Virus record (IMG/VR): IMGVR_UViG_3300014835_000095
Strand: one strand, 5' to 3'
Length of the DNA: 64,000 nt
From: a virus
How positions within the stretch are numbered: position 1 is the stretch's first letter; every line of letters starts with the position of its first letter. The position numbers and the translations under genes are program-made. The notes beneath the pieces are model-generated. The model did not search any database, was not told the origin of the DNA, and saw nothing but the letters and a program-made list of their open reading frames with translations. Below, in pieces: positions 34,684-63,933 of this stretch.

Positions 34684-35280
34684 CTAAAATACAAAATCTG
34701 AAGTATCACGCTTTTCCTTCTTATTAGAAGTATAAGACATAGGTGGTGCTTTCTGTGGATCTGCAATACCAACCTGTGAACTATTTTCTGTATCAAATAC
34801 TCTCATTTTGTTCCTATCTATACCCACAACAAATTTATTATAATAATTAACATCGGCATATCTGTTTTTCAACTGTTTTATCATGATCTGTCCGAGTTCT
34901 TCTAACTCTGGGGTAGATATTAATCCTAACATTAAGTCGCAAGTTTGGGGGAGACCTATTGAATTTTTAGTTAGAATATCGTTACAATAAAAAAGGTTAT
35001 CACCTGTTACCGAAATATCAATAGTTTGCAAAGTACCCACATCTTCTATAGACATAATTTCATCATTATAATCTATAAGCTTATCAGACAATTCTGATTT
35101 TAATTGACGTTCTTCTTCTATAGTAAATAACAAATCTGTCAGTTCAAATAATTCTATTTCATTGGTTTGATGGATATAACCTTTTTCTTTTAAATAAATT
35201 GCTTTTTTAAAACACTTTTCATACAAAGATGGATCTTGCTCATAATTTGGTTGATTCATATTGTTCCTATGATTTAGCAT
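34684..35280 (-). CDS. 41: gp41 helicase C-fragment with split-intein C half
   Basis: ...NLFYCNDILTKN|SIGLPQTCD...KQLKNRY; likely start M8 (35259) behind AGGA. Confidence 0.92.
   Translation of the reverse strand: MLNHRNNMNQPNYEQDPSLYEKCFKKAIYLKEKGYIHQTNEIELFELTDLLFTIEEERQLKSELSDKLIDYNDEIMSIEDVGTLQTIDISVTGDNLFYCNDILTKNSIGLPQTCDLMLGLISTPELEELGQIMIKQLKNRYADVNYYNKFVVGIDRNKMRVFDTENSSQVGIADPQKAPPMSYTSNKKEKRDTSDFVF
34963..35259 (-). mobile_element. Split intein C half with extended N-terminus (gp41)
   Basis: DEIMSIEDVG..TIDISV...FYCNDILTKN; Ser at +1. Confidence 0.85.
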
Positions 35281-37058
35281 GATTTTAATAAATCCCCAAC
35301 GGACAAATCCATATTGACAGATTTTCTACCTGTATTAGATGGAAATACATGATCTTTAGATACAATAATAGTTTTACCACTTTTTAAAGTGATCTTTACA
35401 CATTCTTTAGGTTTTTCATGATGCACAAACATGACAGTTTTAAACACATCATTGGCGGTAATCTGATCCCCCGGAACAATATCACCAATTCTTTTGAGAG
35501 TACCATCTAATAATTTAACTTGTTCTCCCACCCAAATACATTCAGATGTGCTAGTCAGATCTAGATCTGACGAATTAATTGATTCACGATTTGCCTGGGT
35601 AGCGGAAACTATAGGTACATTATTTTCAACCGCCAATCCTCTCAATTCTTCTGCTATAGATTTGATATAAGAGTAACTATTGACACCTGCCCCAAATTTC
35701 ATTCTTTGAGATGAACAGATATTAAGGTAATCAATATAAATAACATCAGGTATAAAATCTTTCTTAATTTTCAACTCTTCTATTAGTGCTCTAAAATGCC
35801 CAGCATGAGCTCCTGATGTTGGGTATTCTTTAACAATCAAAGTTCCGGTGGTTTTCTTTTTCAATTTTTGAATGCGACTATTAAAAATGTCATATTCAAC
35901 TGTTTTAAGTTCATGCATACCCAAATTTAATAAATTAGCATCTATACGCTCTGCAATGCGCTCCTCGCTCATCTCCATAGTTATATAAAGCACATTTTTA
36001 TTATTAGAAATATTAGCAGAAGCCATATGGCACATAACTAAACTTTTTCCAACACCAGTATTATGGGAGCTGACACTATTGGTATAATATCTGTGATTGT
36101 CATGATCCACTTGAATATCAACAATAGGAATTAGTTTTCCCGTTTTTCTAACATTACCATGTATTAATATTCCACCTTTAGTTAAATATAGTTGATTTGG
36201 GATATTTATTAAATCTTTAGCATATTGCCAACCTATATCGGTTTCAAATAAGTGATTTTCATTTACTCGGACTTCTACACCAGATTCTAAAATTAAAACA
36301 TATTCATTCCATTCACCCTTATCCACAAATAATAATATAGGCACAAAACCATCAGGTGAATCTACTGTAATTCTATTACCTGATTCTAACAATTCTTTTA
36401 TTTGACCAATACGGATTGTTATTACATGATTTTCATCATTTAATTTTACATATATATTAGTTTCTGGATGCACACATCCCGCTAAAAGTACATTGAGTGA
36501 TTTTTTAGACAACCCACCATTAGTGATTTTATTTAACAGTTCAATATCAAAAGCTAGCTTTTCTTCAGTTTTTCTATAAAATTCAAATCGGTCATTTGCA
36601 TCTGCAATGTAATCGTGACCAACTGAAGAATCAAAAGTGATACCCAATGCCTCTGATAAAATGCTGGGGATAGCTTCTGGCGTATATTGTTTATCTTTAC
36701 CCTCAATGATACCGATGGATGCCAAAATTGCTATATATACAGCTCGTTCTTTTACAAATACTTCAGTTTCACGCAATATCCAATTTTCATTAATATCGGT
36801 CTTATCTAACACAGCAATGAGCTTTTCTGCTTCAATCAATTCATTAGAATTAATATCTCTACGATTGGATACTTGTATTGATAGTATTTCTTTAGTTGCT
36901 GGCTTGTTAAATTCTGCAAAAAACTTTAGTAGTTCTTCTGAAACTATAGCTTCAACTCTATCTGCAAAGTATTCTTTTTTAAGAAATGGTATAACTTTTC
37001 TAGAATACTCTTCGTTATGAATTAAATTAGATAATATTGTTGTTTCTATTCTAGACAT
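35274..37058 (-). CDS. 41: gp41 helicase N-fragment with mini-intein and split-intein N half
   Basis: LLAG|intein|TGVGKS; YIDYLNI; SATQANR; ends in CIWVGEQ...GDLLKSC. Confidence 0.95.
   Translation of the reverse strand: MSRIETTILSNLIHNEEYSRKVIPFLKKEYFADRVEAIVSEELLKFFAEFNKPATKEILSIQVSNRRDINSNELIEAEKLIAVLDKTDINENWILRETEVFVKERAVYIAILASIGIIEGKDKQYTPEAIPSILSEALGITFDSSVGHDYIADANDRFEFYRKTEEKLAFDIELLNKITNGGLSKKSLNVLLAGCVHPETNIYVKLNDENHVITIRIGQIKELLESGNRITVDSPDGFVPILLFVDKGEWNEYVLILESGVEVRVNENHLFETDIGWQYAKDLINIPNQLYLTKGGILIHGNVRKTGKLIPIVDIQVDHDNHRYYTNSVSSHNTGVGKSLVMCHMASANISNNKNVLYITMEMSEERIAERIDANLLNLGMHELKTVEYDIFNSRIQKLKKKTTGTLIVKEYPTSGAHAGHFRALIEELKIKKDFIPDVIYIDYLNICSSQRMKFGAGVNSYSYIKSIAEELRGLAVENNVPIVSATQANRESINSSDLDLTSTSECIWVGEQVKLLDGTLKRIGDIVPGDQITANDVFKTVMFVHHEKPKECVKITLKSGKTIIVSKDHVFPSNTGRKSVNMDLSVGDLLKSC
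35277..35540 (-). mobile_element. Split intein N half, 88 aa (gp41)
   Basis: TSTSE|CIWVGEQV; block B SKDHVFP. Confidence 0.9.
36060..36476 (-). mobile_element. Contiguous mini-intein, 139 aa, in gp41 Walker A
   Basis: AG|CVHPET...NENHLF...SVSSHN|TGVGK; no endonuclease domain. Confidence 0.93.
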
Positions 37059-38537: not shown

Positions 38538-39470
38538 TTAAAAAAACGAATCTAAATTTGATATTTCTTCTAGATTCCAGCCAATTGGCTCAATAATTCC
38601 TCCTAGCGCATCCAAGAACACTTTTTCAAATTGAAAATCCCAGTCTACATATTTGTGCAATCCAAATTCTGGTGGTAGAACGGATGGAAAAGCAATAACA
38701 TTTTCTTTAATTGTATTGGGTTTCTTTAAATATATGAATTTAATCTTATCGCCAGAATTGATCGGTTGATACTTATTAGTAAGACATAGCTCTGTTATTA
38801 GATGGTTATATAATAGAGCACCTCTAACGTGTATGGGGCACCCTTTGGAGTAAATTGTAGCATTGCTCTGGTATTTCTCCATACCGTTAACACCGCGTGG
38901 AAATGCAATATCTTCAACTGGTATTTTTTTAAATTCTTCTCTAGCATCATCAATAAATGCAATTAGATCTGGATTCGTCTTATCAAAAATAACATCAATA
39001 GAAGATTTCAATTTATCTCTAATAACTGCGGGGGTGGATGATTTTACAATTTCCAACCCCATGATTTTATACTTGGGTTGGTCATATTGCACACCTTCAG
39101 AATTGTGGACTCTTAGTATGTATCGCTTTTTCACTGCTGGAAACAGTCCTTTGGAGCATAAGACCTCTCGCTTCATAGACATAAGCTGTTGATATGATTG
39201 CAGATAATCTGCCAATTCCTCATAAGACTTTTTGATGAATGGTGTTAATATTTTTTCACTAAAGGTATCCATAAAGGCAATCTTTTCATCCACAGACTTA
39301 TCTTTTTGTGTAGATTCTATTAAATTCTCTAATGTCAAATACACAGAATTGTGAACACATATATCATTGCCAAAGAAATTGTGAGTATCTTCTACCTCAA
39401 TATCATAAACAAACTGTTCTTGGATGCCCAAATCTGTAACCTCAAATACATCACTAAATTCTAAATTCAT
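38538..39470 (-). CDS. 43: gp43 DNA polymerase fragment 3 (41-aa IntC plus palm/thumb)
   Basis: YDIEV..HNFFGNDICVHN|SVYL; KKRYIL; KIMGLE; CPIHVRGAL. Confidence 0.95.
   Translation of the reverse strand: MNLEFSDVFEVTDLGIQEQFVYDIEVEDTHNFFGNDICVHNSVYLTLENLIESTQKDKSVDEKIAFMDTFSEKILTPFIKKSYEELADYLQSYQQLMSMKREVLCSKGLFPAVKKRYILRVHNSEGVQYDQPKYKIMGLEIVKSSTPAVIRDKLKSSIDVIFDKTNPDLIAFIDDAREEFKKIPVEDIAFPRGVNGMEKYQSNATIYSKGCPIHVRGALLYNHLITELCLTNKYQPINSGDKIKFIYLKKPNTIKENVIAFPSVLPPEFGLHKYVDWDFQFEKVFLDALGGIIEPIGWNLEEISNLDSFF
39348..39470 (-). mobile_element. Split intein C half (gp43)
   Basis: Blocks F/G ending VHN; Ser at +1. Confidence 0.9.
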
Positions 39471-39527
39471 ATAATATCCTATATAGGTATAGCTACTTTT
39501 GATTTTAAGTCAAAAGTAGCTATAAAA

Positions 39528-39713
39528 TTATTTCATCTCATTAAGAACTAAATCCATTCCCACAATTCTAGCAAAAACAAAAGCATCCTTTCTAGAATTA
39601 AAACTGGCACTAACAATCTCTTCACCAATTAGATTGACAATATGGTATTGGAGTTTTTGATTAACCAGACACATTGATAAAATACCAGATGGTACTGCAT
39701 TAAAATTATACAT
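39528..39713 (-). CDS. Hypothetical protein between intein halves
   Basis: ORF track. Confidence 0.45.
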   Translation of the reverse strand: MYNFNAVPSGILSMCLVNQKLQYHIVNLIGEEIVSASFNSRKDAFVFARIVGMDLVLNEMK

Positions 39714-39727
39714 CTTAATCTCTCTAT

Positions 39728-39958
39728 TCAGATTAACTTATGCTTTGAGCCATCTTGACAAATAACTGATATATGATTTGTACTTGGTCCAGACATATTG
39801 ATAATCGTGACATTTGACGTACCACCACCATTTTCACATTCTTTGTTAATAGCTTGTGAAATGACATTTACTTCATACGGATTGAGCGATAATACTTGAA
39901 TAAGAGATGTTATAATTACTATAGATGTTAATGCAAATGCTAATAATATTGTTTTCAT
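39728..39958 (-). CDS. Small exported/membrane protein between intein halves
   Basis: Signal-like N-terminus; two Cys. Confidence 0.6.
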   Translation of the reverse strand: MKTILLAFALTSIVIITSLIQVLSLNPYEVNVISQAINKECENGGGTSNVTIINMSGPSTNHISVICQDGSKHKLI

Positions 39959-40434
39959 TTAGTGCCCATTTTGAGTAAGGTATTGATAGAAACCATAAAC
40001 ACATTATTGGTTAATTCTGGATCCATTCTTACACCTTCAGCGATTTTAATAGATAAAATAATAGATGTTTTATAAGAAGGGTTATACAAATTTACCGCCA
40101 AATTGAATTCTTTATTGTACATAATTTTAGAAAAATGACTATAAACAGATTTGATGGGTAAATTATCATAAGGTTTAAAACCAACCCGACTTAATTTTGT
40201 GTTAATATCTGTGGTATCTTCCAAAAAGATATTCTGTTGGAATTGCAATACCTCTAATTCCAACATTTTAATAATCACATCACCATGATCTAAATTTCTC
40301 ATAGTCCAAATTTTAATAAATCTATTTTTTTCAAAATGGTTATTAATAGAAGTAAATATTCTCAAAGGGGACATATTGTTGACTTGTGTTGAAATTATTT
40401 TTTTAGTCATTGCATTGATAGAAAATGTATTCAT
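39955..40434 (-). CDS. Hypothetical protein between intein halves
   Basis: ORF track; behind a promoter at about 40471-40499. Confidence 0.6.
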   Translation of the reverse strand: MNTFSINAMTKKIISTQVNNMSPLRIFTSINNHFEKNRFIKIWTMRNLDHGDVIIKMLELEVLQFQQNIFLEDTTDINTKLSRVGFKPYDNLPIKSVYSHFSKIMYNKEFNLAVNLYNPSYKTSIILSIKIAEGVRMDPELTNNVFMVSINTLLKMGTK

Positions 40435-40499
40435 GTTTATTGTCTCTATGTGATTAAAGTAAATAGAATTGTATTGTCATCCTCAGCTCAAGTCAATAA

Positions 40500-40877
40500 T
40501 TAAATGTCTAATCCCCTGACGGCACGAACAAAGTACGCAATAGTCTTATTGTGGCCGCTCTGGGCGCCATTGCGGAAATTCTGGTACCAAGCATTGGTAG
40601 CAGTAAACTCCGTACTAGACCAGTAATTGGCCGCAGTGAATTCCTTTCTAATTTCATTATTCAGGTATGCTTCCGAAAGAATATTTCTTGGTGGTAGTTC
40701 ACCTCCGACAGTTTGACACCATTCAATTGCAGCATCCCAATCCACCATTTCTGGTGCTTCTGGCCCCAATATCCACCGGTATCCATTTAATTCGCAGATA
40801 ACTGGAGCAGTAGCCCAATCATATGATTGATTTGTTAAAGCATCAATTTGTTGTTGTATTTGTTCACATTTAGTCAT
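40500..40877 (-). CDS. DUF1566/CLec-fold protein, candidate DGR target (paralog 2)
   Basis: YWSSTEF..AW..F..G..K..VRAV; high identity to 9614..9970. Confidence 0.85.
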   Translation of the reverse strand: MTKCEQIQQQIDALTNQSYDWATAPVICELNGYRWILGPEAPEMVDWDAAIEWCQTVGGELPPRNILSEAYLNNEIRKEFTAANYWSSTEFTATNAWYQNFRNGAQSGHNKTIAYFVRAVRGLDI

Positions 40878-40950
40878 AATATTTCTCTTTAAGAGTTAAG
40901 GTAAGCATCAATTGTACTACCATCCTTGGCTAAGGTCAACTATTTTAACA

Positions 40951-41640
40951 TCATTGTGGAAAATTCTTACTATCAACTCCCACTAGATCATTTATTGATA
41001 TGAGACAATGTATTTTGGAATCTAATAATCCAGGCTTAATTGATTCTATCTCACATGTAAGTTTATTCTGCACTATAACAGAGTGATCTTCTGTTACAAT
41101 AACCTCTTTACCCTGGGTTTTTATTGAAAACATTCGCTTATTGACTTTATGTTTCATCACATATTTAATATTAGAATCTACCAATTCACTATCGGCATTT
41201 ACAGAATTTGTTTTACCGTGAGATAATTTAACCATATTATCATGATCATTCTTTATAAAGAAGTCAGGCATTGAATCATAATAATCAGATATAGAAATTT
41301 TATTTCCATTTACTGTAATAATAGTGCTACCGATGACTGAATCGGTATCTGAAGCAATCACGTAATCTTTATTTTTAGTTTTGAGTGCTAGATTAAGATA
41401 ATTATTTAATTTATTAGCAATCCACCTAATCGCTAATTGACCTGTTGTAGTGATAGATTCAGCCATCCTTAGATCATAATATCTAAAATGTGTGCTGCCC
41501 AAAATGCCATAGCAAGAATTAAGTGCGATTTTTTTCCCCATTTGAAGATTGTCGAGTCTAGAAATCTCTTTTACTAAAAACACCTTGTGTTTAAGTAAAT
41601 CATCATCGGACATCATTTGTATATCAAGACCCATAATCAT
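40951..41640 (-). CDS. 43: gp43 DNA polymerase fragment 2 (motif B plus IntN)
   Basis: KIALNSCYG, ITTTGQ, ASDTD|SVIGST. Confidence 0.95.
   Translation of the reverse strand: MIMGLDIQMMSDDDLLKHKVFLVKEISRLDNLQMGKKIALNSCYGILGSTHFRYYDLRMAESITTTGQLAIRWIANKLNNYLNLALKTKNKDYVIASDTDSVIGSTIITVNGNKISISDYYDSMPDFFIKNDHDNMVKLSHGKTNSVNADSELVDSNIKYVMKHKVNKRMFSIKTQGKEVIVTEDHSVIVQNKLTCEIESIKPGLLDSKIHCLISINDLVGVDSKNFPQ
40954..41340 (-). mobile_element. Split intein N half, 129 aa, Ser1 (gp43)
   Basis: SVIGSTII; block B VTEDHSV; inserted in the DTD|S motif. Confidence 0.9.
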
Positions 41641-43262
41641 AATCCTCGTTTTTTAATTTCATTCTTAACTAGCTCGTATTCTTGTTCACATTTTAGCATC
41701 TGCTTTTTATCAACTGTACGACTTACATATAATGTCTCCATCAATTCTGGAAGAAACCCTTGTTTGTCTTTTCTGTAGCACCAACCGTTTGCAGTAATTG
41801 ATAGATCTGTTTTAGGTAAAGGATCTTTATTTAATAACGTATCTAAAGTGATATTTAACTTAGTTGTTGAAATAGTTTCGGGACTTATGTTGCATTGTCT
41901 GATTAAAGATGGGTAGAGTGATGCCAAATCAAACGATGCTACCCATTGATGCATACCTGCCAGGGGTTCTTTTACATATGCACCTATGAATTGCTCACCT
42001 TTCTGTTGATGTTTGCTATTAGGGATAACAATATGTTTTTTAAGTAAATTATTATATATGATAGAATCCCACAATTTAACTGGACTTAGAGCATCATTAT
42101 AATTCAATTTCCCCATGTATGCCATCGTCAAATGTAAATTTATCAGCTTTAATTTATCGTCAAGTTTAGTAATAAGTTCAACATCCATTCTATTATATAA
42201 AGTATATTCATTCCATGCTGATTGTCTTAGTGATTTATCTAACTCCTCATATTCTCCCATTCGTACAGAATCTAAATATGGGATATCTTTTTTAAGTTGT
42301 GTTCTCCTAAATCCGAGTTTATTGTGGTCTGTTGGGTTCTCGCCAAGATCTAATACATCATAAACACCTGTACAATATTCTCTAAAAGTAGTTCCGTGGG
42401 TGTGTTCTAATTTGGATTCCCCTAATTCTATAGCACCAATATTGCCTAAGCTATAACTTTCTCTATTTTTATAAGTATATTTTTTATAAAGGACTAGGTA
42501 ATCTAATGAACTAATGCCTATAATTTTATACATCTGTTCTTCTTTGCCTTGGACGTTGATATTCTGCTCATCAACAAAACCCCAAGGAGACAATCTCTTA
42601 TAAGCATCTCCTAACACATGTTTGATTCTATTTACAATGTATGGAATATCAAATGTGTCACTATTATATCCAACAACAATATCCGGATAATCATATTGCC
42701 AAAATAGTAAAAATTTATTTAATAACTCTTTTTCATCTACACATTGCACATAATCTTCTTGATATTTTCCTGTATAAGGTCTAGATCCAAATGTTGTTAT
42801 TTTATTAGATGTTTTATCTTGTAGAGTAATAAGAACAATTTCATCCCTAGCAAATTTGGGATCAGGAAAAACACCAGATTCTGATACTAAAAGTTCTATG
42901 TCTAATGTTAGGATTTTAATCAAATCAGAATCATATAATACATCGTCTTTGTAGTTTTCAGAAATATATTGTAGGGCATAATTAGATTGTCCAAAGATAT
43001 TGAAATCTTGAACACCTTCATAGGTTTTAATAAAAGCTTTTGCATCATCAATTCCCCCAGGTTTGATTGGATATGCTGGTATATCATCTAAGGTCCTCCA
43101 TGGAGTTTCTGTATTTGGAGTTTTTTGGTTAGTTGTAAATAGTGTGGGCTTAAATGGTATTTTAGATCTTTGCGGTTGACCGTTTACTATTTCACGCACT
43201 AGGAGGTTATCCCCCCGTCGAATTACCGATGTGTAGAAATTCTTTGACATTGTATTCTCCAA
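41637..43262 (-). CDS. 43: gp43 DNA polymerase fragment 1 (N-terminal, 3'-5' exonuclease, motif A)
   Basis: LDIE, YNSDTFDIPY, YNRMDV, SFDLASLYPS; ends in the fingers helix. Confidence 0.95.
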   Translation of the reverse strand: MENTMSKNFYTSVIRRGDNLLVREIVNGQPQRSKIPFKPTLFTTNQKTPNTETPWRTLDDIPAYPIKPGGIDDAKAFIKTYEGVQDFNIFGQSNYALQYISENYKDDVLYDSDLIKILTLDIELLVSESGVFPDPKFARDEIVLITLQDKTSNKITTFGSRPYTGKYQEDYVQCVDEKELLNKFLLFWQYDYPDIVVGYNSDTFDIPYIVNRIKHVLGDAYKRLSPWGFVDEQNINVQGKEEQMYKIIGISSLDYLVLYKKYTYKNRESYSLGNIGAIELGESKLEHTHGTTFREYCTGVYDVLDLGENPTDHNKLGFRRTQLKKDIPYLDSVRMGEYEELDKSLRQSAWNEYTLYNRMDVELITKLDDKLKLINLHLTMAYMGKLNYNDALSPVKLWDSIIYNNLLKKHIVIPNSKHQQKGEQFIGAYVKEPLAGMHQWVASFDLASLYPSLIRQCNISPETISTTKLNITLDTLLNKDPLPKTDLSITANGWCYRKDKQGFLPELMETLYVSRTVDKKQMLKCEQEYELVKNEIKKRGL

Positions 43263-59457: not shown

Positions 59458-60315
59458 TTAAATTGAATTTTTAATATCAGTAAATGTGGATTTATTTAGT
59501 ACATATTGTATAGCATTTTTATTTTGCGATATAGCTTTATTAATTATTCCAATATTAGGGTTTTTAACATATTGTAGATTACCCCCATTGGTCGCAACAC
59601 CCAATAAACAAAGTTCTGGGGTTTGTACATTTACATATCTTAAGGCATCACCATTCTGTTTTATAGCAGCTAGACATATCTCGGGTGTTTGGTTCTTAAC
59701 ATATTGTAAAATTAATCCGTTTTTCATAACTGCCATTTTGCACAATTCAGGAGTTTGGTTCCTTACAAATTGCAACGAAAATGGGTTATGTTGGATTGCT
59801 ATTTTACAATATTCATCACACTGTTCTGGTATATATAGTAAAGAAAAAGCATTTTGTACTAATGCAGTCTTGATTATATCATCTGTTTTATCTAACACAT
59901 ATTTCAATAAATCTCCATCATCAGTAACAGCCGCCAGTGAAATTGTTGGTGATTGTATATTTACATATTTAAAAGCCAAACTATTATGTTTAATAGCTGC
60001 CAAACACAATAACTCTGTCTGGATATTGACAAATAACAGCACAAAGCCGTTTTGTTTTACAGCAGTCATACACACCTCATCTGTTTGATTGATGACATAT
60101 TGTAACGCATCACCATTCTGTTTTACAGCTGCTAGACATATTTCATCAGTTTGATTGATGACATATTGTAAAGATTCACCATTCTGTTTTACAGCTGCTA
60201 GACATATTTCATCAGTTTGAGTTTGTGCAAATCTAATATTATTTCCATTTTTTTTCACTAGATGTAATAATTCTTTTGAATCTTCAATCCCCCGATATAC
60301 CATAAATGGCTCCAT
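59458..60315 (-). CDS. DUF4116-type repeat protein
   Basis: About 22-aa repeats CLAAVKQNG.ALQYV.NQT.EI. Confidence 0.85.
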   Translation of the reverse strand: MEPFMVYRGIEDSKELLHLVKKNGNNIRFAQTQTDEICLAAVKQNGESLQYVINQTDEICLAAVKQNGDALQYVINQTDEVCMTAVKQNGFVLLFVNIQTELLCLAAIKHNSLAFKYVNIQSPTISLAAVTDDGDLLKYVLDKTDDIIKTALVQNAFSLLYIPEQCDEYCKIAIQHNPFSLQFVRNQTPELCKMAVMKNGLILQYVKNQTPEICLAAIKQNGDALRYVNVQTPELCLLGVATNGGNLQYVKNPNIGIINKAISQNKNAIQYVLNKSTFTDIKNSI

Positions 60316-60581
60316 AATAAATTATTTATGTGATGCTTCCAATTCCAATTCTTGAAGTTCATCTTTATGTACTTTAATATTATCAATAACAGCTATTTCA
60401 GGATACTGTCCGAATAATGCAATTGTAATATCATCAAAGTAGTAAAAATATCCAATTGTGATTACAAGGATTACCTCATATAATGATATATATTTCATCT
60501 AAAATTCCTATTATTTAAAGTATATATTATACTGTATATAGTATGTGAAGTCAACTTTTAAATCAATTATACTGTAAAATA

Positions 60582-62564
60582 TCAAGCTAGGCAAATCTCA
60601 CTAAAATCGTGACGCTTCTCAAAAGTCAATACTCTGTCAAATTTATCAATTATATCATCAACATAGTGAGATATTACAATGCAATTATTCTGTTCATTTC
60701 CTGCATTTGTTATTAATTTTAACACATTGTCTGTTCCTGCAGAATCTAAACTTCCTGATAATATCTCATCCATAATCAGGAGGTTGGTGTTAGCAGAATT
60801 CTTCATTCTTGCTATTTCTCTAAACGTGAATAGTAACGCCAAATCAATCTTTATCTTTTCACCCTCGGAGAAGCTGGCATAAGTAAATTCATCCCGAAAT
60901 CTTGATTTGATGGTTTCTGTAAAAGATTCATCTAGCTCAAATTGAATATGTAATTCCATAGCATTTAAGAACTTAGCTATAAGCTTATTTATAGTAGGAA
61001 GATATTCTCTAATTACAGATGTTTTAATTCCGGTGTCTTTTAGTAATAATGATGCAATATCTTCAATATTACGTTGCTCAAGCACCTCGGTTTTAACTGT
61101 AATATTGTTGACAGCACTAGCAGCAAGTAATTTAAGCTTCTCTCTCTCTGCTTTAATATTGCCCCGATCTCCCTTAGTATTAATAATATCTTTTTCTAGG
61201 CTTCTATTTTGTCTAATAAGGGTCTCTGCCGCGGATTTGGCAGAATAACTAGAGTTTTTAGCAGAAATGATAGTAGATTCTATCAATTTAATAGAAGCCA
61301 TCCTAGTATTATAAATTTTTAAACTATCATCTAAGGTATCTATTTGAGCTTTATTTTGATCATATTCAACCTGCAACATATTTCGTATTGACGACTTATG
61401 TTCATGTGGTATTTGCTGTGAACACGATGGGCAATCGTCATTCTCATCAAAGAAGCTAAAAGTCTTTTCGATTAAAACATTACCGTGAGTCACAGTTTGT
61501 TTCATAGTATGTGTATGATCAATCTTATCAAGAACTTCTTTATTATCGCATATAGATAATTGATGCTGTTCAATATCATCAGTTAATAATTTTAAGGTAT
61601 TGGCATTAGATACAATTTCTTTATGATTAGAATCTATTCTAGCTTGAATATTATCAATTTGTTCTTGCTTACCAGTCTCCATACTCTTAATAAGGGTTTG
61701 TTGATGATCAACTTTAGTCTTAGAAATATTAATATCATTATTGAGTACATCTAATTTTTGTTTAGATGCTTGAATTTGATCCTTCAGAATAGAATTCATG
61801 GTACTAAAGATTCTAATATCAAGAATATCTTCAATAACTTCTCTTCTATTTGCAGAAGACAATTGCATGAAAGGCACAAAAGACGCAGAGCCTAAAATTA
61901 CTACTTGACAGAAAACTCTATATCCCATCCTCAGAATTTGTTGCTCTAGAACGGTTTGGTAATCTTTCAAAGCTGCATCTTGTGTAATAAGAATACCATT
62001 TTTCCAGATTTCAAATATGCTAGGCTTAATACCACGCTTAACCAAATATTCAGAACCACCCACATCAAATTCAATTTCAACTAAAAGGTTCTTTCCATTG
62101 ATTGAATTGACTAATTGACCTTTATTGACATTTCTAAATGGTTTTCCAAATAACCCAAGTGTTAATGCATCTAATATTGTTGAATTATGAGATACCAAGC
62201 CATTGGCATAGAATTCATGTACATCCTCAACTTGAAGATCATATAGGTTTTCAGTATAATCTAATAGTGTAATTGATTCTATACCAACTGGAGTATCCAT
62301 AGAAACTAAATTATCATTAATAGATAAATCTTTTGTCATAACCCATTTGTCATTAGATAACATTTGATGATTAGGGCTTGTCTTTATTGATACACCAGAA
62401 GTGATTTTAATTTCATACACTTTAGAATTATAGGCGGTTATATCAGCGGCTAAAATGGACTTATACCCAAATCGGGTATTAACTTTTATTTTACCGACAT
62501 ATTCTGGGTAAGCTTGATAGAATTTATAAACATTTTCAATTGTTGATTCCATAATATTTCTCAA
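60582..62564 (-). CDS. 46: gp46 recombination ATPase C-fragment with long IntC
   Basis: ...YANGLVSHN|STILDAL; SFSEGEK, LIMDE, VISH. Confidence 0.95.
   Translation of the reverse strand: MRNIMESTIENVYKFYQAYPEYVGKIKVNTRFGYKSILAADITAYNSKVYEIKITSGVSIKTSPNHQMLSNDKWVMTKDLSINDNLVSMDTPVGIESITLLDYTENLYDLQVEDVHEFYANGLVSHNSTILDALTLGLFGKPFRNVNKGQLVNSINGKNLLVEIEFDVGGSEYLVKRGIKPSIFEIWKNGILITQDAALKDYQTVLEQQILRMGYRVFCQVVILGSASFVPFMQLSSANRREVIEDILDIRIFSTMNSILKDQIQASKQKLDVLNNDINISKTKVDHQQTLIKSMETGKQEQIDNIQARIDSNHKEIVSNANTLKLLTDDIEQHQLSICDNKEVLDKIDHTHTMKQTVTHGNVLIEKTFSFFDENDDCPSCSQQIPHEHKSSIRNMLQVEYDQNKAQIDTLDDSLKIYNTRMASIKLIESTIISAKNSSYSAKSAAETLIRQNRSLEKDIINTKGDRGNIKAEREKLKLLAASAVNNITVKTEVLEQRNIEDIASLLLKDTGIKTSVIREYLPTINKLIAKFLNAMELHIQFELDESFTETIKSRFRDEFTYASFSEGEKIKIDLALLFTFREIARMKNSANTNLLIMDEILSGSLDSAGTDNVLKLITNAGNEQNNCIVISHYVDDIIDKFDRVLTFEKRHDFSEICLA
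62184..62564 (-). mobile_element. Atypically split intein C half, about 123-127 aa (gp46)
   Basis: Contains block B SPNHQML and blocks F/G; Ser at +1. Confidence 0.88.
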
Positions 62565-62680
62565 AATAATTCATTATAAATGGGTAATATTCTTTTTTTT
62601 GATTTCATTATAATATAGATTCAAAAGTCTCTATATTATAATGAATGCTATGTTGTGTTGTAATCAAAATCCAGATAATA

Positions 62681-62881
62681 TTAATTATTAAATTGTGTAA
62701 ATAACTCTCGTATCTCCAGATCATCTATATGAATGTTTATATTAGTAAGCTTATCAAGACATTTACCTGCAGAATTTTTACCAACTGTTAGAGTAGTATT
62801 ATGTGTATTTAGTTCTATTTTATTAGGCACATTGCCTGTTGATAAAAAATTTTTATAAGAAACACTTTTAAAGATAATCAA
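62681..62881 (-). CDS. 46: gp46 N-fragment (40 aa) plus 26-aa IntN
   Basis: FKSVSYKNFLSTGN...GKNSAGK|CLDKLT. Confidence 0.9.
   Translation of the reverse strand: MIIFKSVSYKNFLSTGNVPNKIELNTHNTTLTVGKNSAGKCLDKLTNINIHIDDLEIRELFTQFNN
62684..62761 (-). mobile_element. Atypically short split intein N half (gp46)
   Basis: CLDKLTNINI block A only. Confidence 0.85.
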
Positions 62882-63933
62882 TTTTGAACTCCAATGGCTT
62901 CAATGTATAGTGATTTCATGAATAATTTAACAGATTCTTTATTATCATGTTCAGATATAGATTCAACATATGATTCTAATATTTCAAGAGTATTTTCAAC
63001 ATCTATCTGAATATTATCGGATGTAGTTTCTGAGAATGCAGTAAGATCTTCTAGAATCTTTATCTCATATGTATCGGCTTCATATAGGCTACGAAGAAAT
63101 TGATCGTATAGATAAAAATCATTCTTCTTGATAACTACTATCTTAATATACTTATGTACAAATGGACTAATATCAAAGGTTAAATAATCATTAATTTCAT
63201 CGTTGTATTCGTGTCTAATAAACATTTCTTGTGGTGATGGTATAAATTCTAGTTCTCTTGTTTCTGTGTCAAAAATATGAAATCCCTTCTGGTCAGAAAA
63301 ATCATTCCATACATTTTGATAAGGAGTACCAAGGTAATGAATATTACCGCTAGATGATCTAGTGTGAAAATGTCCAGACCACACTGATTTATATCTTTTA
63401 AATATATTCTTAGATAATCCACCATGTGCTTGAACTCCCTTGTACATAGCAAAGTTTTCTATTTCAAAATGCCCACAACAGATATCAGAATTACTATTCT
63501 TTATAAATTCAATAACTTCTGCGGAATTATCAGAACATATCCAGGGGATCATATCAAAAGTTACACCGCCAATTTCAAGTGAAGTCGGTTTATCGTAGAT
63601 ATGTACATTTGAATATTCATTCAAGAGTAATGATTGAGCATTAAGTTCTAAAGAGTATCTATAGAAAATATCATGGTTTCCAATAAGTGTATATAGATCC
63701 ATTTTGGCATCTTCTATTGGCTGAAAGAAGTATCTCTTAGCATCAGATAAAGCATTAAAATTGATAGATCTCCGAGCATCAAAAAGATCACCCAGTTGTA
63801 TTATGGTATCTATCTTATGTTCTTTTAAATAAGGAAAAAAAGTATCAGTGAAGAAATTATCCATCATTAAAGAAAAGTGTGGATTAGCATTTCTAAGTCC
63901 CAGATGCAAATCTGAAATTACACAAATTTTCAT
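62878..63933 (-). CDS. 47: gp47 Mre11/SbcD-like nuclease
   Basis: SDLHLG, LGDLFD, IGNHD, CGHFE, SGHFH. Confidence 0.96.
   Translation of the reverse strand: MKICVISDLHLGLRNANPHFSLMMDNFFTDTFFPYLKEHKIDTIIQLGDLFDARRSINFNALSDAKRYFFQPIEDAKMDLYTLIGNHDIFYRYSLELNAQSLLLNEYSNVHIYDKPTSLEIGGVTFDMIPWICSDNSAEVIEFIKNSNSDICCGHFEIENFAMYKGVQAHGGLSKNIFKRYKSVWSGHFHTRSSSGNIHYLGTPYQNVWNDFSDQKGFHIFDTETRELEFIPSPQEMFIRHEYNDEINDYLTFDISPFVHKYIKIVVIKKNDFYLYDQFLRSLYEADTYEIKILEDLTAFSETTSDNIQIDVENTLEILESYVESISEHDNKESVKLFMKSLYIEAIGVQN

Follow-up and report, generated by a model that had tools for sequence, protein, structure and literature searches.

Results

Anatomy of the gp46 locus

In the 64,000-nt stretch of phage DNA analysed here (the window), gp46, which encodes a Rad50/SbcC-type repair ATPase, is present as two minus-strand open reading frames (ORFs) and is cut within its ATP-binding loop, the Walker A motif (Table 1). 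The source phage is an uncultured, freshwater, T4-like virus. The gp46 N-fragment ORF begins at a TTG that overlaps with the gp47 stop codon, and the order gp47-gp46 matches that in Prochlorococcus phage P-TIM68 and in Pelagibacter phage Mosig. Translation of the N-fragment runs through ...TTLTVGKNSAGK into the N-terminal intein half (IntN), CLDKLTNINIHIDDLEIRELFTQFNN, and then meets a stop codon (62681-62683). The second ORF supplies the C-terminal intein half (IntC), whose C-terminus reads ...YANGLVSHN, followed by a C-extein (STILDALTLGLFGKPF...) with a coiled coil, a CxxC zinc hook and the signature/Walker B region; this C-extein gave weak Pfam matches to Rad50_zn_hook and SMC_N and a tblastn match at 3e-107.

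Table 1. Features of the gp46 locus and inteins of the window
Feature	Position	Strand	Evidence
gp47, Mre11/SbcD-like nuclease subunit, directly upstream of the gp46 N-fragment	62878..63933	-	Pfam Metallophos 6.3e-10
gp46 N-fragment ORF, 66 aa (40-aa N-extein + 26-aa IntN)	62681..62881	-	TTG start, ORF list
gp46 N-extein, 40 aa, ends VGKNSAGK (first part of Walker A)	62762..62881	-	Aligns with residues 1-40 of intact gp46; PHROG 77 SbcC-like 9.3e-09
IntN, 26 aa: Cys1, block A (CLxxxTxIxI), accessory amphipathic helix with conserved F..F	62684..62761	-	23-locus N-fragment alignment
Spacer, 128 nt, AT-rich	62553..62680	-	20% GC over the 116 nt counted from TTG
C-fragment ORF, open from TTG at 62564	60582..62564	-	ORF list
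IntC, 123 aa: beta3, canonical alpha1 (TIENVYKFY), block B S59-P-N-H62, block F DLYDLQVEDVHEFYANG, block G VSHN	62184..62552	-	Pfam, 28 relatives, PDB profile matches
gp46 C-extein, 533 aa + stop, starts with the +1 Ser of Walker A (STILDALT)	60582..62183	-	Alignment to intact gp46
Window intein 1: gp46 split pair, 26 + 123 aa
Window intein 2: gp41 cis mini-intein, 139 aa, in Walker A
Window intein 3: gp41 canonically split, 88 + 106 aa, IntC ends KN
Window intein 4: gp43 split, Ser1/Ser+1, 129 + 41 aa

The start signals of both gp46 ORFs are modest (a TTG start; poor Shine-Dalgarno sequences): GGAG lies upstream of the TTG of the N-fragment ORF, and only a weak GAG precedes the ATG of IntC. 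This ATG, at 62552 (MESTIEN...), is a likelier start than the TTG at 62564, because the public gene call of the identical protein (P0001, 656 aa) and all of at least 25 split relatives start there. IntC is therefore taken as 123 aa and the spacer as 128 nt, where the TTG would give 127 aa and 116 nt; the first-pass annotation had given an IntC of about 125 aa and a 116-bp spacer. In a promoter and terminator scan of the spacer, the 10 sigma70-like matches were no excess over the 6.8 +/- 2.4 found in shuffled sequences.

In the intact gp46 proteins of P-TIM68 and Mosig, the motif ...GxNGTGK-STxLDAL... runs uninterrupted across the junction. Aligned with these two proteins, the window pieces map to residues 1-40 and 41-end with none missing, and tblastn of Mosig gp46 against the window recovered residues 1-40 and 41-568 and no other match, so that the 64-kb window holds no second gp46 detectable by this search. 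Since the pieces abut exactly at 40/41, the intein lies between the Walker A Lys and the following Ser/Thr (GxxGxGK|ST). The predicted spliced gp46 has 573 aa, compared with 575 and 571 aa in the two intact references.

Catalytic residues of the intein

The C-fragment is matched by Pfam Intein_splicing (PF14890) at 4.5e-11, with 43.2 bits against a gathering score of 35.8. The nucleophile at intein position 1, Cys1, directly follows GKNSAGK; as C41 it is invariant in 23 N-fragments, together with G39-K40, and T46 and F64 are nearly so. Among 28 relatives, S59 and H62 of block B are invariant, with Ser replacing the Thr of TxxH (SPxH), as are L103, D105, E113, N117, V120, S121, H122, N123 and S124 (the Ser+1) across block F, DLYDLQVEDVHEFYANG, and block G, ...VSHN|S. 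The invariant columns of the 28-relative alignment are the mechanistic ones, which fits a class-1 intein with Cys1 and Ser+1. Judged by these residues, the gp46 element is a class-1 intein with a complete catalytic set, and it is predicted to splice.

Position of the break in the HINT fold

Searched against the PDB, the family profile matched NrdJ-1 (1.9e-11), gp41-1, VidaL (1.3e-07) and CatC (3.1e-06). The NrdJ-1 segment KTTIKEVVEIF, which spans beta3 and the canonical alpha1, aligned to the start of IntC (xvTIkdivdFY) in this profile search and likewise in the shortest contiguous member, and NrdJ-1 alpha1 fell on IntC residues 4-13. The HINT fold was modelled with AlphaFold (AF2) on a contiguous relative (P0008:36-198, pLDDT 94), and the window halves were examined as a predicted complex. 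In the contiguous model, beta2 occupies residues 12-17 and is followed by an extra helix (20-26), a loop (27-33), beta3 (34-38) and alpha1 (39-48); split members break within the 27-33 loop (P0008 model numbering), where contiguous members carry a linker of variable length. The model superposes on VidaL with a Foldseek E of 2e-11 and TM scores of 0.78/0.87 (VIA-align Z 20.1, rmsd 2.1, 143 residues aligned) and on NrdJ-1 with a VIA-align Z of 20.6 (rmsd 1.5, 135 aligned).

The break precedes the canonical alpha1, in an enlarged beta2-beta3 hairpin loop, and therefore occupies the S1 position known from VidaL and PolB16, not S2. S1-type inteins have an IntN of 15-37 aa and a break after beta2 but before alpha1, both of which are found here, and the accessory helix is absent from the descriptions that define the type. 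S2-type inteins break directly after alpha1; the gp46 intein carries alpha1 inside IntC, and its profile matches CatC only from position 19. The sole reason for an IntN as long as 26 aa is the accessory helix with its conserved F..F. The break was initially likened to that of AceL-TerL, an assignment that gives way to a VidaL-like (S1) one.

Predicted docking of the two halves

Complex prediction was carried out on the 66-aa N-fragment and IntC with ten extein residues, each with its own alignment, alongside three controls. The pair reached an ipSAE of 0.78 compared with 0.00 for the best control, a score that solved split-intein complexes may inflate; in a benchmark, 58 of 80 solved complexes and 2 of 110 mismatched pairs attained the ipSAE mark. 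The runs had at least 78% of contacts in common, with a partner pLDDT of at least 56. N-fragment residues 38-54, 57, 60-61 and 64-65 contact IntC in the model: strand 48-52 of IntN pairs with IntC 21-25, the Cys1 region faces blocks B, F and G, and the IntN tail (I57, L60, F61, F64, N65) is placed against the first IntC helix. The predicted docking may in part reflect memory of, or likeness to, solved split-intein structures and to that extent would not count as independent support.

Independent assemblies

Contigs from three studies of freshwater and lake metagenomes, assembled independently, share this stop codon and this spacer. A single contig (X1) covers the whole stretch including the spacer, and identical pieces (X3) bridge it. 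A variant strain (X4) differs within the spacer by two indels, of 1 and 5 nt, and by 8 substitutions, and both its frames are open. All six of the IntC differences in X4 (one variant strain, depth ~5) are non-synonymous, a count too small to tell relaxed constraint from chance and one that may include low-depth contig errors.

Relatives and conservation of the split

The same intein occupies the same gp46 site in more than 35 metagenomic phage loci (IMG/VR and other metagenomes), where it occurs in three states: contiguous, split with a short gap, and split around a free-standing endonuclease gene of ~350 aa. A protein search recovered 31 further proteins with 45-61% identity over the intein (~25 of split length, 6 contiguous), and an IMG/VR scan gave 39 further strong loci. 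Some 30 loci (39-62% identity) are broken at the same point, with an IntN of 26-36 aa and an IntC of 121-127 aa as read from DNA. The N-fragments of relatives were likewise read from DNA; a protein search with the N-fragment gave matches limited to the window's own cluster. For the three pairs with unsaturated dS (dS is saturated in most others), dN/dS was 0.18-0.22 in IntC, a level comparable to the 0.13-0.20 of the extein.

This gp46 intein is absent from 50,697 deposited phage genomes, in which the best matches were TerL inteins at ~30% identity, and the literature searched holds no description of an intein in gp46, SbcC or Rad50; the report of Dassa et al. (2009) makes no mention of any of the three (PMC2677866). 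Few natural atypically split inteins have been described, namely AceL-TerL, GOS-TerL, VidaL and PolB16 (2026 paper, PMC13014065), as the first-pass annotation held; the loci counted above nevertheless indicate that the type is not rare.

Endonuclease genes and the origin of the spacer

The intein halves are separated either by a short gap of 6-335 nt or by a long one of about 1030-1350 nt. Each of the 11 long gaps examined holds a same-strand ORF, ten of them of 338-432 aa, with a longest ORF of 200 aa at L026. The N-terminal parts of these ORFs are homologous and the C-termini are of two kinds, one (R.DFY...ELAG) with a weak Holliday-junction-resolvase PHROG match and the other (GY.V..IW..D) resembling Vsr/DUF559. 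The intervening endonuclease P0036 matched no Pfam family, and its PHROG Holliday-junction-resolvase match is weak (0.003); the putative nuclease class of the intervening ORFs is assigned from motifs. The 'fractured gene' layout of Dassa et al. (2009) is thus seen in relatives L003, L008-L010, L017, L018, L022, L026, L032, L034 and L036; in the window, the halves are separated by the 128-nt spacer with a decayed relic and no endonuclease gene.

Two relatives with near-identical halves, L003 and L005, have gaps of 1092 and 6 nt, respectively, so that the endonuclease gene is polymorphic for presence or absence. In the intein tree the three states are interspersed, and its well-supported branches require a minimum of five changes for the short-gap state, five for the endonuclease state and three for the contiguous one. 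The window intein sits in a supported clade (96/95) with L003, L005, L006, L008 and L010.

One frame of the spacer (~62553-62640) reads ...YNIETFESIL, two in-frame stops, and then NQKKEYYPFIMNYFEKYY. By tblastn, its translation is identical to the C-terminal end of the endonuclease at L003 (YKEKTFNSIIL-YEKKEYQPFVEEYMITWY) at 13 of 30 positions, a short match that covers approximately the last 30 codons of the endonuclease gene. The Smith-Waterman score of 57 compares with 32.2 +/- 3.9 (maximum 50) for dinucleotide shuffles, and none of 1000 shuffles or 499 window tiles reached it. At L006, in the same clade, an uninterrupted endonuclease 3' tail (QKMKYKESTFNAKILW...) is found in a 120-nt gap. 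At the nucleotide level, blastn-short of the spacer against related gaps returned chance-level AT-rich words only, and the relic is visible at the protein level only. Because of the C-terminal match and the L006 tail, the window spacer is best read as the decayed 3' end of a free-standing homing-endonuclease gene that was otherwise deleted.

Discussion

We propose, with a probability of roughly 85%, that gp46 of this phage is made as two polypeptides rejoined by an atypically split intein, and that the split arose through insertion of an endonuclease gene that was later deleted here. We infer splicing and the evolutionary order from the gene anatomy, the catalytic residues, the conservation of the split, the predicted docking, the relic and the assemblies. 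One polypeptide would comprise gp46 up to the Walker A Lys followed by IntN, and the other IntC followed by the remainder of gp46 from the Walker A Ser. IntN might contribute beta1 and beta2 to IntC, with the accessory helix packing on IntC alpha1, and so complete the HINT fold. The class-1 pathway could then begin at Cys1 with an N-S acyl shift; trans-esterification to Ser+1, Asn123 cyclisation and an O-N shift would follow, joining Lys40 to Ser+1 and restoring GKNSAGK-ST in a 573-aa gp46. As to the origin of the split, the ancestor may have been a contiguous mini-intein in the gp46 P-loop, into whose enlarged hairpin loop a free-standing homing-endonuclease gene entered to give a 'fractured gene'; subsequent deletion of this gene in the window phage would have left the 128-nt relic spacer.

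The central suggestion of the first-pass annotation, an atypically split intein with a 26-aa IntN in the gp46 Walker A, is borne out by sequence, relatives, complex prediction with controls and independent assemblies. It had also named an artefactual spacer as a finding that would overturn this suggestion, and the stop and spacer in contigs of three studies contradict such an artefact. The window is derived from a metagenome, and an A-run in the spacer varies in length between assemblies, features that might be expected if the stop and spacer were assembly or sequencing errors within a contiguous intein. We nevertheless give this explanation almost no credence, as the position of the split is identical at some 30 further loci, the contigs are independent, and the spacer is accounted for as an endonuclease-gene relic.

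Two biological alternatives deserve somewhat more weight. It is conceivable that gp46 is decaying and that the ORFs are remnants of an inactivated gene with no active Rad50; in favour of this, the spacer already harbours the relic of a decayed gene, signals for translation initiation are weak (TTG; poor Shine-Dalgarno), and the differences in the IntC of X4 are uniformly non-synonymous. Both ORFs are fully open, however, and keep all motifs, among them the zinc hook and those of the C-terminal ATPase part; the adjoining gp47 is intact, the 64 kb hold no other gp46, relatives maintain the same split under purifying selection, and in the variant strain the frames are open and indels are confined to the spacer, all of which makes decay improbable. 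Slightly less probable still is that the halves associate without splicing, as a non-covalent dimerisation module comparable to the intein-less split NrdA of Aeromonas phage Aeh1. There is documented precedent for such rescue where an endonuclease gene has split a phage gene (PMC3045599), gp43 of the window has one intein-less split, and the complex prediction speaks to docking rather than to chemistry. Against this, all catalytic residues of the splicing pathway are conserved without exception in 28 relatives, a HINT domain of 149 residues remaining in GK|ST would occupy the ATP-binding loop, and relatives with a contiguous intein at this site depend on splicing for any working gp46. A split intein that joins the two gp46 proteins is the most likely arrangement.

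The gp46 intein belongs to a known kind of element that is relevant for protein engineering; what is new is its host gene, gp46, which is not described for such an element in the literature searched. One of its closest counterparts is VidaL, a naturally atypically split intein from the Lake Vida metagenome (PDB 6vgv/6vgw), which is also class 1 and Cys-dependent, stems from an uncultured phage-like source and combines a short IntN with a long IntC. Both inteins break before the canonical alpha1; the family profile aligns with VidaL from IntC residue 2 on, and in comparisons with the model of the contiguous relative VidaL ranks first by Foldseek and near the top by VIA-align. The two differ in sequence (~23% identity), in host gene and insertion site, and in the IntN, which has 16 aa in VidaL, with fragment boundaries taken from a secondary source and alignment ranges, compared with 26 aa here. 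The greater length of the gp46 IntN is explained by the accessory helix that the gp46 family carries between beta2 and the break. VidaL has been characterised experimentally, whereas the gp46 intein is known from sequence.

Other natural split inteins share some of these features. PolB16 OarG (PDB 8cpn) is likewise a natural S1-type split intein, with a 15-aa IntN (PMC10189870), and shares the HINT fold (Z 15.2); it differs in being a cysteine-less Ser1/Ser+1 intein with a dispensable block B His, in having as its host a DNA polymerase of gut-metagenome origin, and in its weak sequence match (E 0.01). While VidaL and PolB16 are split at S1, after beta2, AceL-TerL and GOS-TerL are split at S2, after alpha1 (PMC13014065). 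AceL-TerL, GOS-TerL and the consensus Cat intein of the phage terminase large subunit resemble the gp46 intein in their 25-30-aa IntN, their origin in uncultured phages and their Cys-dependence, and have been used in semisynthesis (PMC13014065), but they differ in their host protein and in a break that follows alpha1, which in gp46 lies at the N-terminus of IntC. Finally, the fractured genes of gp41-1 and NrdJ-1 (PMC2677866) provide a parallel in gene layout: they are phage DNA-metabolism genes in which split intein halves surround a free-standing homing-endonuclease gene, Vsr-like ones included, and NrdJ-1 is the best sequence and VIA match of the gp46 intein. Unlike the window gp46, these inteins are split canonically (IntN ~100 aa, IntC ~40 aa), and the window copy is without an endonuclease gene.

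On balance, and by a narrow margin of belief, we favour the view that the gp46 P-loop inteins form a distinct, undescribed family of natural atypically split inteins, characterised by a break in an enlarged beta2-beta3 hairpin with an accessory docking helix. Free-standing endonuclease genes of two kinds might land in this loop time and again; members would then alternate between the contiguous, the fractured and the endonuclease-free split state, perhaps with re-fusion as well, and the window copy could have been caught just after loss of its endonuclease gene. In this phage, the ATP-binding loop of an essential recombination ATPase would exist only after trans-splicing. The spacer retains a trace of the endonuclease gene to which the split is probably due, and this lends support to the fractured-gene model of split-intein origin; the contiguous and fractured forms of the same intein represent natural controls for a viable split. 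Protein semisynthesis and labelling place a premium on natural split inteins whose IntN is short and chemically accessible, and only a handful of these have been described (AceL-TerL, GOS-TerL/Cat, VidaL, PolB16; PMC13014065). The gp46 locus and its more than 30 relatives add many new candidates with Cys1 and Ser+1; if its members are active, a family of at least 30 inteins with an IntN of 26-36 aa would multiply the known natural short-IntN inteins available for semisynthesis.

The window had been credited with three split inteins, in gp46, gp41 and gp43; it holds four inteins, as gp41 also contains a cis mini-intein (Table 1). Orthogonality of the split inteins of the window is plausible from their low similarity and different split topology, the four inteins being alike only around blocks F and G.

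Presence and absence of the endonuclease gene

Two metagenomic loci carrying related gp46 inteins, L003 (770-1866) and L005 (2991-3001), have near-identical intein halves and differ by a 351-aa endonuclease ORF, the gap between the halves being 1092 nt in the former and 6 nt in the latter. This difference is a clean presence/absence polymorphism of the endonuclease ORF. At a third such locus, L006 (1873-1995), the 120-nt gap between the halves retains the 3' tail of the endonuclease gene, uninterrupted (QKMKYKESTFNAKILW...), and is a second, independent deletion relic. In the spacer of the window itself, the length of the homopolymeric A/T run at 62592 varies by assembly, with two additional bases in sequencing run X1 and one base fewer in X4, a low-depth variant strain.

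The ORFs that lie between intein halves have in common a repeated module at the N-terminus that presumably binds DNA. They fall into two sets with unrelated nuclease-like C-terminal ends, one found at loci L003, L008, L010, L009, L017, L018 and L026 and the other at L022, L032, L034 and L036. This combination of a common N-terminal module with two unrelated ends suggests that domains were swapped among the intervening endonuclease ORFs.

Divergence and splitting of the gp46 intein

In most pairs of related loci, intein dN was lower than that of the adjoining gp46 extein (IntC versus C-extein, e.g. 0.30-0.43 versus 0.56-0.65). The lower values would fit an intein that spread horizontally between gp46 genes that have diverged, or could just reflect rapid evolution of the coiled coil. 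The contiguous intein of L039 and L040 is nested with good support (97/97) in a clade of split inteins (L033, L034, L036 and L038), and its linker runs on from the same IntN tail (...FLEFIKNKKECKIEV...). Together, the nesting and the continuing linker suggest that a split intein was re-fused, or that splitting occurred repeatedly.

Other inteins and neighboring ORFs in the window

The Walker A motif of gp41 is interrupted by a 139-aa cis mini-intein (junctions LLAG|CVHPE...SSHN|TGVGKS). A canonically split intein is also present in gp41, with an 88-aa IntN at the end of one ORF and a 106-aa IntC in the overlapping next ORF; this IntC has a long charged extension at its N-terminus and ends in TKN|S, where Lys replaces the penultimate His. 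The gp43 split intein (Ser1/Ser+1, 129 + 41 aa) has its halves separated by 1.5 kb containing four small ORFs, and the gp43 break at 41637-41640 is intein-less.

Coordinates of intein-bearing genes and of ORFs near gp46 in the window
Feature	Position	Strand	Remark
gp41 helicase ORFs	35274-37058 and 34684-35280	-	second ORF overlaps first
gp43 DNA polymerase, three ORFs	38538-43262	-	
285-aa repeat ORF	59458-60315	-	downstream of gp46
Small ORF	60322-60498		between gp46 and 285-aa repeat ORF

The 285-aa ORF is made of approximately nine tandem repeats of about 30 aa each (QTxExCLxAVKQNGxxLQYV).
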